Below, piece by piece: positions 17,417 to 25,189 of a stretch of 64,000 nt of DNA. The position numbers were made by a program, and so were the translations under genes. The DNA is from a virus. The notes beneath the pieces are model-generated. The model had not been told where the DNA came from. It ran no database searches and worked only from the letters and a program-made list of their open reading frames with translations. Location of the stretch: the IMG/VR virus record IMGVR_UViG_3300009285_003054, positions 24,726 to 88,725 of that record. One strand, given 5' to 3'. How positions within the stretch are numbered: the first letter of the stretch is position 1; every line of letters starts with the position of its first letter.

Positions 17417-17617
17417 TCAGATCTTCGTAAGCTTCTTCCCATCCCACTTGATCCCCATTTGCGCAAGGATTTTACCCGGATCACTACTCGACAGGTCAAT
17501 GGCTTCTTTCATCGCCATCTTCTGGTAGTCCGGCTTCCACTTGAGCATGGCCAGACCGACTTGTTTGGCCACCGGACCCCGGTGACACAGGGAATACCCG
17601 TAGGTTGCGTGGGGCAC
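17417..17617 (-). CDS. Small hypothetical protein
   Basis: Short ORF. An in-frame upstream RBS+ATG (17656) is cut off by a TAA (see findings). Confidence 0.45.
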   Translation of the reverse strand: MPHATYGYSLCHRGPVAKQVGLAMLKWKPDYQKMAMKEAIDLSSSDPGKILAQMGIKWDGKKLTKI

Positions 17618-17683: not shown

Positions 17684-18118
17684 TTACGGGGTGGGGGTGA
17701 CCAAGGGGTGCCTAAACTCGGCCCCCAAGTCCTGCAGATCTGCCAGGAAGCCTTCCCGGTACTGCGGCAGGATAGCCACCAGAGCAGGCTTCATATCGAT
17801 AGGGTATGGCTGATTGAAGAAGTCGATGCATTCCTTCAACCCCAACCCCCAACGCACTATACCTACCTTCTTATCCTCTTCTGGCTGATGAGAGTGAGAG
17901 GAATACATCCGAAGGAGTTTGATCGCTTTGACCGGCTTGGTAAGCAGCCGACCATCATCATCGTATCCCAGAGGGATACTTAGCAATGTCGGGTACTTAG
18001 CCTTAACCAACAGGCCCAACCGAATGAACACCAGCTCATTGAAGGTAACGTTCTCAACCCTGGCATCCTGTAGCATAGCTGCTACAACCGAATCTGCTAT
18101 CTCTACGGTCACTCTCAT
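17684..18118 (-). CDS. Ribbon-helix-helix-like N-terminus fused to a ribosomal bL12 (L7/L12) C-terminal-like domain
   Basis: MRVTVEIADSVVAAMLQDAR..NVTFNELV is RHH-like. KPVKAIKLLR...GLGLKE...LADLQDLGAEF aligns with the bL12 CTD KVAVIKAVR..GLGLKE...LKKALEEAGAEV. AAGGAG RBS. Confidence 0.65.
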   Translation of the reverse strand: MRVTVEIADSVVAAMLQDARVENVTFNELVFIRLGLLVKAKYPTLLSIPLGYDDDGRLLTKPVKAIKLLRMYSSHSHQPEEDKKVGIVRWGLGLKECIDFFNQPYPIDMKPALVAILPQYREGFLADLQDLGAEFRHPLVTPTP

Positions 18119-18156
18119 TCCTTCTCCTTTGTGCAGCCTCTTCTTGATTTCCGAAG

Positions 18157-18186
18157 ATTGCCATATTGCCACACCGTATTGCCACA
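18157..18186. repeat. Three ATTGCCA direct repeats (two as TATTGCCACA), possible operator
   Basis: Read directly. Lies 39-68 nt upstream of the RHH-like gene start. Confidence 0.6.
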
Positions 18187-18200
18187 TTTGATCCGGGGAT

Positions 18201-18434
18201 TTAGGGAATTAGCTGTGTGCCACAAAGCTGGCACCATAGCTGATAATCCATCCCGCGCTGCGACCCGTATTCTACAGTATCCGTGTGCAAGCACTCCCCT
18301 GGACTTGGAAACTGTGCCGGAATCTTTACACCACAGATCTGACATTGAAGATCCTCTAGACCTCCGGGGTACTGCTGTAGTACCACGGTGTTAGTGTGTT
18401 GACAATTATCATTGCACTGGCCCATCTTGGTCAT
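18201..18434 (-). CDS. Small protein with two C-x-H-T...CxxCG zinc modules
   Basis: CQHTNTV...CQICG and CLHTDTV...CQLCG internal duplication. First gene after the 18521 promoter. Confidence 0.7.
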   Translation of the reverse strand: MTKMGQCNDNCQHTNTVVLQQYPGGLEDLQCQICGVKIPAQFPSPGECLHTDTVEYGSQRGMDYQLWCQLCGTQLIP

Positions 18435-18492
18435 CCTTTACTTTTACTTTTTGTTCCAAAAAAAAAACAGTCTACGTTGCTTTAGAGTTTCA

Positions 18493-18521
18493 AGTGTAGC
18501 ACGGATTCAGTTTCCTGTCAA
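18493..18521 (-). promoter_or_regulatory. sigma70 promoter TTGACA-17-TACACT (extended -10 TG)
   Basis: Read directly on the minus strand, with an A-rich tract upstream. Confidence 0.8.
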
Positions 18522-18538
18522 GGGTAATTTTTTTAGGG

Positions 18539-19351
18539 ATGTTAACTATGCAGAAAACCAGTACTAAGGTCAAGACTTACTCCAGTATCCGAGGAAACAA
18601 AGGAAGGCCATCCCCGCAAGAAGAGCTAGTCAGAAAAGAACGGATGTTCCGACAAGATCCTACCAATATGTCGATGGTAGACAAGTTACGTCTTGCTCGG
18701 AAATTGGCTGCCGAAGGGAAATCATCCAAGTTCATAGTCAGAAAGACCACCCTTATCTTAGAGGAAGCAAAGGCCATTCGCGCGGCGGTACGTGGGGTTG
18801 AACTCCGCTCGAATCACATTCAGATCCTCAGGAGGAGTCTGCAGAAGATCACACAAGATCTTATTCCTCTAGCGGAGGCAGCCTACCAGGACTCACCTAC
18901 TGGGTATAATGCCTCGGCTATTACCTCATTGTCTTCCGAGGCACGCTGTACTATTTCGGATATAGAGAATCTACAGCAACCCGAAACAACTGCACTAGAG
19001 ATCATCCAGAACATCTTCCAACCGTTCTTAGCCGCAGTCATGAGAGAAACGGTTATGGAGGCTCGGAAAGCCAGAACCGATAGTAGAGCTGTCTGCCCTT
19101 CGAGAGCCGCAGAGATAGCGGTTGACAGTGCTTTCAAAAAGATGAATTTGAGTCTTGGGGTAGCGTACAAGGGGCTCTATGCAGAATTCACAGAGAAACT
19201 CGGGATAGTCCTCAAATGCGACTTGCAGGAACTGCGTAACATGGCTACCAATGGGCGTAAAGTGGCTATGGATAACAGTGATTCTGTGGACTCAGGCTCT
19301 AATGAACGGAGACCCTGGGAGGATGACAAGAGTTTTGAGTACGATACCTAA
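18539..19351 (+). CDS. Helical hypothetical protein (terminase small subunit is one possibility)
   Basis: Long alpha-helical ORF about 3 kb from the terminase. Function not demonstrable from sequence. Confidence 0.6.
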   Translation: MLTMQKTSTKVKTYSSIRGNKGRPSPQEELVRKERMFRQDPTNMSMVDKLRLARKLAAEGKSSKFIVRKTTLILEEAKAIRAAVRGVELRSNHIQILRRSLQKITQDLIPLAEAAYQDSPTGYNASAITSLSSEARCTISDIENLQQPETTALEIIQNIFQPFLAAVMRETVMEARKARTDSRAVCPSRAAEIAVDSAFKKMNLSLGVAYKGLYAEFTEKLGIVLKCDLQELRNMATNGRKVAMDNSDSVDSGSNERRPWEDDKSFEYDT

Positions 19352-20195
19352 GCTATCCCCTATCCGAAAGATCTACTGGGAATTTGTCCGGGAGCGCAAT
19401 CGAATCTTCGAGAAGAGAAGACAAGGGTGTACCTGGCCCTGGACATCTGACAGAGTATTGCAACAATATCGATTCACCAATACTTATCGTTGGCTAGACC
19501 GTACAAGCCAGTACTTACTGCTTTTGCAAGAAAAAGCCCCACCCCGCGCCAAGATCCATGTAACTCTGTTATTCAAGCTTTTCAACTCGATAGACACCTG
19601 GGCAAATGTCTTGCGGGAGTTTCGCGATCCCCGCGACTACGACCCAGAGAGATGCGCCAACGCACTGGATAGTTATGCACACTCCGGAAGGTGCATCTTC
19701 AGTGGGGCATATCTTATCCCGCCTATCCCATCCCTGGTCAAACCCGGAGAATCCAAAGCACGGGCTTACTGCCGCTTGGTACCCCTGTTGTCAGATGTGG
19801 TCAATCAGCACACCGTATCACACTGTGACATTTCGGTGATGTACCAAGCACTGCGTGAGCAACCTGGGATGGGGGATTTCATGGCTATGCAATTGGCCAC
19901 CGATCTTTCCTATGGGGTACCCGAGAAGATCTTGGATATGGGGGAGTTTGTAGTACCCGGTCCAGGTGCTATTCGTGGTGCGTACAAACTAGTGAGAAAG
20001 ACAGTGTCGTCCGAGGGTACTGCGGATTTGATTCTGGAGCTATTTGAACAACAACTGCAACTTTGGCCACGGGGGTATGCTACCAACTATCCTTTGAATC
20101 TCTTCGGTATCCCGCTCTACGCCATGGACATCCAGAATACACTCTGTGAATTCGATAAGTACTGTCGGGTAGCCAGACACGAGCTAAGTGGGTGA
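19323..20195 (+). CDS. aGPT-Pplase1 / 5-hmdU DNA kinase helical-domain family protein
   Basis: Family signature F..ER..I...R...WPWTSDRVLQQYRFTNTYRWLDR.SQY, followed by LFKLFN..DTW, IFSGAY, GMGDFMAMQ..DL.Y, PGPGAIRG and IQNTLCEFDKY.R. ORF track start is 19251. Confidence 0.85.
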   Translation: MTRVLSTIPKLSPIRKIYWEFVRERNRIFEKRRQGCTWPWTSDRVLQQYRFTNTYRWLDRTSQYLLLLQEKAPPRAKIHVTLLFKLFNSIDTWANVLREFRDPRDYDPERCANALDSYAHSGRCIFSGAYLIPPIPSLVKPGESKARAYCRLVPLLSDVVNQHTVSHCDISVMYQALREQPGMGDFMAMQLATDLSYGVPEKILDMGEFVVPGPGAIRGAYKLVRKTVSSEGTADLILELFEQQLQLWPRGYATNYPLNLFGIPLYAMDIQNTLCEFDKYCRVARHELSG

Positions 20196-22630: not shown

Positions 22631-25189
22631 ATGAACTCACCGTGTGTCCTACCTACCGATGTTGATCCAAAGCGTATACTCCATGTAGTATACAATTCCT
22701 TGAGTATCAACGAGTTACAGCAGCTCTACGATCGATGTGGGAGATCTACCAAAGCCATGCGTATTTGCTTGGGAATTCGGGGGGTAGTCTCAAGCAAAAA
22801 GCTCAGTAGGGACCTCTATGACAAAGGGGTCCTGCTCCATCCCGATGATATGCTTGACCAGAGGCTAGGGGTGGCGGGTAAGACTCGATTGGAACTGAGC
22901 AAATACGCTGTATTCGATTTGGGGGATGGCTTTGACCCTGAGTCGATGATGGAAGATGCCATCGATTCTGATCTTGATCCATCCGTGTTCTCTGACATGG
23001 ACATCCGAGAACTAGACAACCCCCCTAATTTCTTCGAGTACGTCACCGGAAGGAAATACCTCAACACCACGATCTTCCCGAGACAGTTCCAGATTCAGCT
23101 TGGATTTTTTGAAGAATTTTGTCCGTGGTGTAGTGACAAAGAATTTGTCAAAGACATCCATCTATCACCCTATCCTTCAGAGGATGGTATACATCGGAGA
23201 CCATGGACTAACGATGAAATCCTTAGCAAAGTAACCCTCTACCAACACGGCAAGTGTCCAAAGTGTAAGCGTACATACATTGACGCTTTCAATGACCCTA
23301 GACAACCTCATCGTTTCCCCAAGGAAGTGGACGCTTGCATTGGGCAGCGGGGTGGAAAAACCCGCATGACCGAACACATGATGTCGTACAACGAGACACG
23401 CTTCCACCTGCTTTCCCCCTCGCCACAGCAATTCTTCGGAGAAGACGCCACCCAGAAGTTCTCAGCTATCTATACCGCCCTGGAGATGACACAAGCGCAA
23501 GACACTCTTTGGGGGGCATACCATCTTCGGGTATTGGCTGCTCCGTGGTGGCACAACTACCACAAATGGTTGGATCATCATGGCAAACGACTAGGAGTAG
23601 AACTCTATCGTATCAAAGAGACATACCATTTCTATGCGAACACATTGCTCCATAGTGTCCTACGTCCCCCATTTGCGAAGAAGATGCGAGGCCGAACATC
23701 CTTTGATGGTGGCATAGATGAGATTGGTATGTTCGCAAAAAGGGAGGGGAGCATCGTTGCAAATGCCGACGAAGTCCACAAATCTATCGGCAACAGCTTG
23801 ATGACACTCCGGGGGAAAGCGGATCAGCTTCTCCGGAGAGGGGTATTGGGTGTTCCCGCACCCGCACTCTTCTGCATTTCATCTCCGTGGGAACTCCTTG
23901 ATAAGATTATGACACTGGTACGGACAGTTGACAAAGATCCTACCCGAGTAGCATACCACTATCCCACTTGGGATTTCAACCCAAATCTTCATCGAGATGA
24001 TCCACAGATGGAAGCCGAGTTTCTCAACGATCCGGTGGCAGCAGAGAGAGACTTCGGAGCTATCCCCCCTTTTGCGAAAGATCCGTTCCACCCAGTTCCC
24101 GATGCAATTGATTACCTGGAGGTTCCCGCACTCCACCAAGTGTTCATCCAGCAGATTAAGTATTGCACCACAAAGAGCGGAAAGCGTTTGGTTTATGCCG
24201 TGCCTCTGCGTATGCAATCCGATCATGTTACACCCAGATTGCTATGCTTGGACGCTGGTGAGTCCGATAACTCATTTGCATTGACTCTCTGGAGATTGGT
24301 GGATTTACCTGCTCCACCGGCAGACACCATGGCTGAGTCAGACGACGATGACGACGATGACGAGGATATCCGGGTGGTAATGGCGGCGATAGCAGCAGAG
24401 AAACACACGAAAGTACCTGGTGATGAGCATCGTGGCAGAGTTACTTACATGCAGCTCGACGGGGCTATTGAGGTACAACCCTTTGTAAACGAAAGTGGAT
24501 ACCAGTATAGGGTGTCTTTCTCAAAGATGTGGAAGTACTGTATTGAACCCATCATTCGGGCATTCAATCTGGTGGGGGTTATTGGGGACCGGTGGAACAT
24601 CACACAGATTATGAACTCAATTGAAGAGTTAGGGGTATACACCGAACAATACAGCTTGGTGTGGTCGGATTTCCTTGCATTCAAAGAGAAGACCAGTGCC
24701 CGCGAACTCCGACTCCCATCCCCCGAACGACCATTTACGGATGTCTACACAGACTACGACAAAGCTGTCCGTGGAGCACCGATTCTACATTTAGTCGTAC
24801 AGTACAAGACTGTACGCCAAGTAGGGCGTACAGTTACCAAACCACCCAGCGGTACGGATGATCTTTACCGTACTATGGTATTAGCACATCGGTTTGCCTT
24901 CAGTGAGAAGGCAGTCAAAGAGATTGACGGGAGGGAAATAAGCTTTTTCGAGCTGCTCCATCGTGAAGGAAAGATGGAGCGAGTAAACCGCGCAGTTTCA
25001 GTTATCATGTTGCATGGTGGGAGTGGTAGCTCATCCCCAATGGCACAGGTGGGTGGTGGATTTACCCGGCTAGGTGGGTACGTTTCGAGGGGTGGTGCAG
25101 CTGGGGGGGTTACCGGTGGGAACTCATACTCTAACGTTGCCACCCACGGTGGGAAGGGTGGGGACAGTCCTAGTACGCGGAGACAATGA
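22631..25189 (+). CDS. terL: Terminase large subunit
   Basis: Walker A GQRGGKT, Walker B GGIDEIG, ISSP coupling motif, WDFNP/RDFGA, RNase-H-like nuclease LDAGESDNSF...DRWN...DDL. Upstream of the portal gene. Confidence 0.9.
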   Translation: MNSPCVLPTDVDPKRILHVVYNSLSINELQQLYDRCGRSTKAMRICLGIRGVVSSKKLSRDLYDKGVLLHPDDMLDQRLGVAGKTRLELSKYAVFDLGDGFDPESMMEDAIDSDLDPSVFSDMDIRELDNPPNFFEYVTGRKYLNTTIFPRQFQIQLGFFEEFCPWCSDKEFVKDIHLSPYPSEDGIHRRPWTNDEILSKVTLYQHGKCPKCKRTYIDAFNDPRQPHRFPKEVDACIGQRGGKTRMTEHMMSYNETRFHLLSPSPQQFFGEDATQKFSAIYTALEMTQAQDTLWGAYHLRVLAAPWWHNYHKWLDHHGKRLGVELYRIKETYHFYANTLLHSVLRPPFAKKMRGRTSFDGGIDEIGMFAKREGSIVANADEVHKSIGNSLMTLRGKADQLLRRGVLGVPAPALFCISSPWELLDKIMTLVRTVDKDPTRVAYHYPTWDFNPNLHRDDPQMEAEFLNDPVAAERDFGAIPPFAKDPFHPVPDAIDYLEVPALHQVFIQQIKYCTTKSGKRLVYAVPLRMQSDHVTPRLLCLDAGESDNSFALTLWRLVDLPAPPADTMAESDDDDDDDEDIRVVMAAIAAEKHTKVPGDEHRGRVTYMQLDGAIEVQPFVNESGYQYRVSFSKMWKYCIEPIIRAFNLVGVIGDRWNITQIMNSIEELGVYTEQYSLVWSDFLAFKEKTSARELRLPSPERPFTDVYTDYDKAVRGAPILHLVVQYKTVRQVGRTVTKPPSGTDDLYRTMVLAHRFAFSEKAVKEIDGREISFFELLHREGKMERVNRAVSVIMLHGGSGSSSPMAQVGGGFTRLGGYVSRGGAAGGVTGGNSYSNVATHGGKGGDSPSTRRQ

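Follow-up and report, generated by a model that had tools for sequence, protein, structure and literature searches.

The question raised by this locus is whether a small phage protein with no recognisable relatives contains a disguised version of the head of the ribosomal stalk protein bL12, or whether it shares a short motif with bL12 by coincidence. The protein in question, here called P0001, consists of 144 amino acids and is encoded on the minus strand at positions 17684 to 18118 (stop codon included) of a 64,000-nucleotide stretch from the virus record IMGVR_UViG_3300009285_003054 (positions 24,726 to 88,725 of that record), which is referred to as the window in the following. An earlier note on this DNA had described the gene product as a ribbon-helix-helix (RHH)-like domain fused to the C-terminal (head) domain of bL12. 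The gene looks real, the motifs and a profile-profile similarity to the bL12 heads of phages are present, and the uL10-binding anchor of bL12 is absent. We lean, by a small measure, towards regarding P0001 as an orphan phage protein composed of a much diverged bL12 head and an unrelated module of about 42 residues, which would act as a soluble mimic of the stalk head.

The likeness to bL12 is first apparent from three motifs and their arrangement. The hexapeptide GLGLKE, which represents the turn and the start of helix alpha5 in bL12, is conserved exactly, as had been claimed, at residues 91-96 (17831..17848, minus strand, like all features of P0001 given here). The L...GAE motif was likewise read correctly, with L128...G132-A-E134 corresponding to L110...G114-A-E116 of bL12 at identical spacing, whereas the proposed K..IK..R pattern of helix 4 holds only in part: IKLLR (residues 66-70) matches IKAVR of bL12, but the upstream lysine is shifted by one position and the pattern reads K.IK..R. 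The alpha4-like segment (KPVKAIKLLRMY, residues 61-72, 17903..17938) is delimited by the first of two HMMER domains (positions 18-29 of the hidden Markov model, HMM) and by hhalign. It is followed by an insertion in the alpha4-alpha5 loop, which covers residues 73-90 (17849..17902), amounts to a net 17 amino acids and is rich in His and acidic residues (beginning SSHSHQPEEDKK); the earlier estimate of its size is borne out by the distance from R70 to G91, which is 20 residues compared with 3 in bL12, and by an hhalign gap at the same place. As judged from hhalign against the phage profile described below, the whole putative head domain extends over residues 43-137 (17708..17992). Within it, V63, I66, K67, and R70 align with V66, I69, K70, and R73 of E. 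coli bL12, and L94, K95, E96, and D99 with L80, K81, E82, and D85, and all of these helix 4/5 positions show identity or conservative replacement in P0001. Helices 4 and 5 make up the factor-contact region of the bL12 head (PMC3299993). A literature search on residue-level contacts of bL12 by residue names returned nothing relevant. The roles quoted for individual residues rest on this summary of helices 4 and 5 and, as background, on work by Kothe from 2004 and by Helgstrand from 2007.

The evidence carrying the assignment beyond these motifs comes from a profile of phage bL12 heads. Such domains were gathered from IMG/VR by a loose motif pattern with confirmation by tblastn, yielding 117 relatives, from which 80 loci were kept; the 72 distinct sequences among them form profile A3, with an effective number of sequences (Neff) of about 8. 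The only PDB matches of A3 are bL12 chains. P0001 aligns with A3 in hhalign at a probability of 92.7% (E 4.2e-7, score 36.0, residues 90-135), and with -mact 0.1 the alignment comprises helix 4 at residues 59-72, a gap of 17 amino acids, and then residues 91-136; this lower-threshold alignment reproduces the one of the earlier note exactly. Three null models, giving values of about 0.2-1%, were run at the same settings. If the motif was kept and both flanks were shuffled, none of 400 sequences reached the observed score (mean 22.9, maximum 32.7), and if GLGLKE was planted at the same place in real 144-residue segments of the phage's own proteins, two of 450 did (mean 23.7, maximum 40.9). If the motif was masked with X, the flanks of P0001 still scored 15.8 against a null mean of 9.6, beating 415 of the 420 real segments compared (5/420 as good), and the masked alignment was colinear and in the correct register, with strand 1 at residues 43-50 and helix 4 at 61-72, followed by helix 5 and helix 6 with its GA. 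Note that this masked null is independent of the motif by which the case had been selected.

A consistent picture is obtained with HMMER, where the phage profile recognises two colinear domains in P0001 (residues 61-72 and 91-134) with 8.6 bits and an E value of 9.4e-5 for a single sequence. If residues 73-90 are deleted in silico, the HMM score increases to 22.1 bits, a value matched by only one of 300 controls in which the N-flank was shuffled and the deletion freely chosen, indicating that the alpha4-like segment is located on the correct side and follows the correct order. The open reading frame (ORF) of P0001 is also the top match of all three bL12 HMMs used among the 2,307 six-frame ORFs of the 176.8-kb record. 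In a direct BLASTP comparison with E. coli bL12, P0001 is 28% identical along an alignment of 58 residues (20 bits, pairwise E 0.005), which offers an alternative to the above in that KKVGIVRW takes the place of KAIKLLR as a shortened alpha4. The proposed likeness to the bL12 C-terminal domain is thus supported to a moderate degree by the hhalign probability, the colinear alignment and the three nulls, but not by the curated family PF00542, and from these comparisons we consider residues 43-137 to be, probably, a bL12 head which has diverged strongly and has acquired an insertion in its alpha4-alpha5 loop.

A number of observations weigh against this assignment, and they define the alternative which survives best, namely that P0001 is an orphan of an unrelated, probably mostly helical fold, in which GLGLKE is a chance hexapeptide while IK..R and L...GAE are ordinary features of amphipathic helices. 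The expected rate of exact GLGLKE matches by chance is about 0.0025 per window proteome, which translates to hundreds of cases across 250,000 windows, and the motif alone therefore proves little; multiplied by the rate of equally good masked flanks, it leaves an estimated handful of equal coincidences over the whole scan. None of the curated libraries sees a bL12 domain, and PF00542 gives no match at E<=10 with the whole protein, with residues 52-144, or with residues 84-140, family membership being defined by a gathering score of 25.9 bits. Six-frame searches of the phage's own record with PF00542 and with A3 let no candidate through their first filter and carry no weight. An HMM of 31 bL12 C-domains from Pseudomonadota scores P0001 at 3.6 bits, compared with 36-63 bits for seven known phage heads, and alpha4 alone reaches 14-23 bits in these seven but -2.9 in P0001. 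With the narrow bacterial profile, hhalign reports a probability of 6-9% and aligns the motif alone; the flanks, scored with the narrow HMM and the motif fixed, are equalled by 501 of 4000 and 384 of 4000 real protein segments, and under a mixed HMM they are no better than about half of the controls. Three profiles were tried altogether, and a signal was obtained only with the most diverse one, while the six-frame ORF search of the whole record returns an E value of 0.32 only. As to the alignment itself, W90 and I98 stand where bL12 has T76 and K84, the helix-4 segment lies 20 residues before the turn, while K-[VI]-x-x-I-K-x-[VI]-R normally precedes it by three, and an insertion between helix 4 and turn occurs in none of the 72 phage and none of the 31 bacterial head domains. 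Since P0001 has no homologues, evidence from conservation or covariation does not exist for it.

Structure prediction adds to the same side, if at all, because the AlphaFold2 (AF2) models computed from the single sequence are all-helical; their confidence as expressed by the predicted local distance difference test (pLDDT) amounts to 38.8 if the complete sequence is modelled and to 51.4 if only residues 52-144 are, which is too poor to count either way. A Foldseek search with the low-confidence C-terminal model yielded nothing at E<=0.001. Against a coincidence speak the hhalign probability with a bL12-specific profile, the masked flanks that still align colinearly, and the alpha4-like segment in its proper place; two of the planted-motif controls do reach the observed score. 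We consequently regard a chance resemblance as possible but unlikely, and retain the derivation from a bL12 head.

The searches for relatives are in line with the isolated position of the protein. At E<=10, P0001 matched no entry of Pfam, PHROGs, NCBIfam, PADLOC or the PDB sequences, except for a hint at DUF717 in the library searches, which was dismissed as meaningless. A helix-hairpin-helix reading of the G-L-G sequence was also rejected, no family of this type in Pfam matching at E<=10. No homologue beyond P0001 itself was found in 5.8 billion clusters or, by full HMMER, in 1.84 billion representatives, and the sole other member of its protein cluster is the version with the longer start. 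Nor did relatives emerge when phages were searched by tblastn and IMG/VR and the JGI metagenomes by pattern scans, and a feature search of the ESM Atlas with the whole protein and with residues 52-144 gave no usable match. Searches for bL12 seeded with the E. coli protein in a large protein database and in genome contigs returned Enterobacterales only, and a first scan of IMG/VR for bL12 by N-terminal patterns had produced no match.

A view on the known bL12-like proteins shows how P0001 would fit among them. Phages encode bL12 domains, often within larger unrelated proteins, and have acquired them repeatedly, and the association of one such protein with the ribosome was found to be weak (Mizuno 2019, Nat Commun 10:752, PMC6375957). 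Among 61 complete phage head proteins from IMG/VR, all match PF00542; the bL12 N-domain is present in 11 of them, and in the other 50 an anchorless head is attached to different sequence. The proteins of the Ralstonia phages RSB3 (ORF10) and RSJ5 (ORF7), as P0001 would, combine an anchorless head with unrelated sequence, and so do the N4-like 'rIIB' proteins of Pectobacterium phage Nepra; many of the phage proteins are small (120-160 amino acids) with the head at the C-terminus, where P0001 has its putative head. With 50 of the 61 examples being anchorless, a head behind an unrelated N-terminus should be regarded as the usual phage form rather than as a new architecture. The claim that the fusion was undescribed therefore has to be narrowed: heads joined to unrelated sequence are known (PMC6375957), whereas a combination of RHH domain and bL12 head is absent from the 61 phage head proteins examined. 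It is one, to our knowledge, that has not been described elsewhere.

The differences to these proteins are no less pronounced. The phage proteins keep a contiguous block, K-[VI]-x-x-I-K-x-[VI]-R-x-x-T-GLGLKE-[AS]-K, inside which P0001 has its insertion of 17 amino acids, and they pass PF00542 and score well on the bacterial HMM, where P0001 fails. If the head assignment is right, which we judge to be probable on the grounds given above, P0001 belongs to the anchorless phage type; it would represent an extreme variant of these heads, set apart by its divergence, the insertion on its docking face and its isolation in sequence space. Bacterial bL12 (L7/L12, rplL; PF00542; PDB 1CTF) shows GLGLKE, the helix-4 IK..R and the L...GAE of helix 6 and strand 3 in the same order as P0001 and at similar spacing, but has in addition a dimerisation and uL10-binding N-domain and an Ala/Gly hinge, both of which P0001 lacks, and it has no insertion in the alpha4-alpha5 loop. 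Because of the missing N-domain and hinge, the failure of Pfam and bacterial profiles to detect it, and the loop insertion, P0001 is, as judged from its sequence, not a ribosomal protein. The absence of the bL12 dimerisation domain had been recognised correctly, as there is no match to PF16320 and residues 1-60 stay at the level of shuffled sequences against an N-domain profile. A stretch VAAM shared with bL12 had raised the possibility of an N-domain in residues 1-60, which was discarded after hhalign against 43 N-domains gave a score of 9.0, with 125 of 300 shuffles as good.

Some of the phage proteins gathered in this comparison are of interest in their own right. A protein of 136 amino acids from IMGVR_UViG_3300017987_000326 (locus L173, positions 197-604, identical to L217, positions 1501-1908) has the size and layout of P0001, with an N-terminus resembling a strand-helix-helix unit (LRVTIP...), a D-x-DGR sequence and a C-terminal bL12 head. 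Unlike that of P0001, its head is a clear member of PF00542 (56.6 bits) and has no insertion, and the protein comes from a phage of high G+C content with a different gene context. Homology of the two N-termini was considered and not retained, 406 of 3000 shuffles being as good, and the L173/L217 protein is a cleaner candidate than P0001 for a fusion of an RHH-like domain with a bL12 head. A recurrent phage family of about 125-145 amino acids combines a conserved N-domain of about 60 residues without a Pfam family (consensus MIPxEHK..I.xGIxFMRSITEAYGxEEGMKLWD..LDP..KG.IFFAMLTG) with an anchorless bL12 head that has a variant C-terminal half (loci L178, L183, L185, L194, L196, L198-L200, L202, L205, L208, L211, L213, and L214). 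In several cultivated phages, namely the Ralstonia phages RSJ5 and RSB3, Streptomyces phage Bmoc and Pseudomonas phage UNO-G1W1 (loci L120, L121, L122, and L125), what can be recognised of bL12 is limited to helix 4, turn and helix 5, and unrelated sequence, Cys-rich in UNO-G1W1, takes up the remainder of the head; helix 4 scores 14-22 bits in these proteins and the C-flanks about 0 bits.

The second part of the earlier proposal concerns the N-terminal module (residues 1-42, 17993..18118), which has no family match. Its pattern begins with a short alternating strand (RVTVEI), continues with one helix and an N-V-T-x-N-E turn and ends in another helix, with the low-confidence AF2 monomer placing helices at residues 5-17 and 26-41. 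By sequence pattern, it looks like the RHH domains of the Arc/MetJ/CopG type (RHH_1, PF01402), N-terminal units of about 40 amino acids composed of a strand and two helices, and the turn and the direct DNA repeats nearby add to the resemblance, but a statistical match to RHH_1 is missing. No RHH family in Pfam was matched at E<=10 by the whole protein or by residues 1-48, nor did PF01402 match anything at E<=10 over the whole genome. A 9-sequence RHH_1 HMM scores P0001 at -0.9 bits, with 1429 of 5000 shuffles as good, and hhalign against RHH_1 returns a probability of 1%, a result equalled by 16 of 300 shuffles, even if the alignment has the register expected for an RHH domain. A homodimer prediction for residues 1-50 reached a score of 0.17 compared with a mark of 0.32, which counts neither way. 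The RHH-like N-terminus has thus no statistical footing, with the fit of pattern and register left, and we consider an RHH domain in residues 1-42 doubtful.

The nearby repeats consist of two tandem direct copies, in exact register, of a 13-nucleotide (nt) sequence (TGTGGCAATAYGG; 18161..18186, minus strand), followed by a third TGGCAAT. They sit in the 82-nt spacer between P0001 and the gene upstream, just upstream of the Shine-Dalgarno site, and are a candidate operator or mRNA element. No further copy beyond chance is present in the window, and across the 176.8-kb record the 9-mer core shows no enrichment relative to the control; a genome-wide role of the repeat as a motif was rejected, as it has no other occurrence in the record. 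If P0001 were a small DNA-binding autoregulator, an RHH dimer of the Arc/MetJ/CopG type would bind to these repeats, and its C-terminal part, whatever its ancestry, would only oligomerise or bind an effector. The strand, helix A, turn and helix B of residues 1-41 in register with RHH_1, the location of the repeats 32-57 nt upstream of the start codon and that of the gene within a small operon behind a sigma70-like promoter would all suit such a function. However, besides the failing RHH comparisons, the repeat lies between two operon genes and not at the scanned promoter, and it occurs nowhere else, rendering this explanation improbable. The same applies, to a slightly greater extent, to the combined version, in which an RHH dimer on the 13-nt repeats would display two altered stalk-head mimics from the DNA; if true, it would physically link an operator to translational GTPases or to another partner that docks to bL12.

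Returning to P0001 as a soluble mimic of the stalk head, we infer its fold, binding partner, dimerisation, DNA binding of the N-terminal module at the 13-nt repeats and time of expression as follows. The head would be arranged in the order beta1, alpha4, GLGLKE turn, alpha5, beta2, alpha6, and beta3, with the insertion in the alpha4-alpha5 loop, and the uL10-binding anchor and the hinge of bL12 would be replaced by the unrelated strand-helix-helix module of about 42 residues. Because the anchor is absent, P0001 should not be able to sit on the stalk, and it would most likely act off the ribosome, perhaps as a dimer. The alpha4/alpha5 face would engage one of the proteins docking to bL12 (EF-G, EF-Tu, IF2, or RF3) or a phage-specific partner, and the His- and acid-rich insertion on this face probably changes the specificity. 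The N-terminal module would serve for self-association or for binding a second target, possibly DNA or RNA at the repeats, and a host-type promoter probably drives P0001 along with the zinc-ribbon orphan encoded upstream. The isolated bL12 head binds the factors weakly, and a simple decoy would therefore need high expression or multivalency.

The genetic surroundings of P0001 support its status as a gene. The coding sequence is preceded by the Shine-Dalgarno sequence AAGGAG (18124..18129, read from the sequence), located 5 nt before the ATG at 18118, and a gene caller reports this 144-residue version on a Logan contig; the JGI gene call uses an alternative ATG at 18187, resulting in a form of 167 amino acids (P0002), for which there is no comparable Shine-Dalgarno site. 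If used, the start at 18187 would place the 13-nt repeats within the coding sequence. Among the six reading frames, that of P0001 scores highest in codon usage (0.234 bits/codon), at or above the 0.006-0.229 bits/codon of 16 other genes in the window. Based on the AAGGAG site, the codon usage and the calls by two pipelines, the ORF is taken as a real gene. That it is instead a chance open frame in a gap between plus-strand genes, as might be argued from the missing homologues, from overlapping plus-strand ORFs of 90-91 amino acids and from no RNA run being listed among those that contain the stretch, is very improbable in view of its codon usage, the strong and correctly spaced Shine-Dalgarno site and the two gene calls, and given that a 1.1-kb stretch would otherwise stand empty in a densely coded phage.

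The gene immediately upstream and in the same direction (18201..18425, minus strand, from the gene caller) encodes a Cys-rich protein of 74 amino acids that contains two half repeats similar to a zinc ribbon. This protein is without a homologue among 5.8 billion clusters, and only a weak hint at a TraR-type zinc finger (E 0.62) was obtained for it; it resembles an internally duplicated half of a zinc ribbon, containing C-x-H-T-[ND]-T-V ... C-Q-[IL]-C-G-x-x-[IL]-P twice. Upstream of it, a consensus scan finds a sigma70-like promoter (18493..18521, minus strand; TTGACA, 17 nt, TG-TACACT; 10 of 12 matches), a candidate which likely marks the start of a small minus-strand operon. A possible third gene of this operon is an ORF of 66 amino acids with a GTG start (17417..17617, minus strand) and an in-frame codon usage of 0.279 bits/codon; it has no family match and no clear Shine-Dalgarno site and is not called by the gene caller, and it may be a missed small gene within the 288-nt gap downstream of P0001. 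Between the promoter and the zinc-ribbon gene, the minus strand shows a run of 10 T (18465-18456), which together with an A-run 62 nt away makes up an imperfect inverted repeat (18440-18480, 18528-18539) in the divergent region shared with a plus-strand gene starting at 18539. Neither the zinc-ribbon neighbour nor a neighbouring protein of 362 amino acids yielded relatives in the searches, so synteny opens no route to homologues of P0001.

The parent record, that of an uncultured groundwater phage, comprises 176,803 bp with a CheckV completeness of 57%, and the stretch is present as identical contigs in four groundwater metagenome DNA runs, all from one study. The large terminase of the record shares only about 28% identity with its counterparts in jumbo phages, among them PaBG and the P. 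putida vB_PpuM phages, and genes for a 5-hydroxymethyldeoxyuridine (5-hmdU) DNA kinase and a methyltransferase are located near P0001. The first ATG of the kinase ORF (19251-20195, plus strand) would lead to an overlap of about 100 nt with the end of the preceding gene for a protein of 270 amino acids, and the gene caller chose a later start (290 amino acids), leaving the true start uncertain.

Phages have repeatedly captured the head of the ribosomal stalk and attached other modules to it, and none of the resulting proteins has a known function. If its head has been assigned correctly, P0001 would contain the most diverged one in this comparison, its insertion lying on just that face with which EF-G, EF-Tu, IF2, and RF3 make contact. 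It would then show how far the head can drift while the turn motif is kept, and hint at a retargeting to other partners. The practical value of the finding is modest for now. Since the curated libraries and the bacterial profiles missed P0001, and only a diverse phage profile detected it, more cryptic heads of this kind may hide among the orphan proteins of phages.

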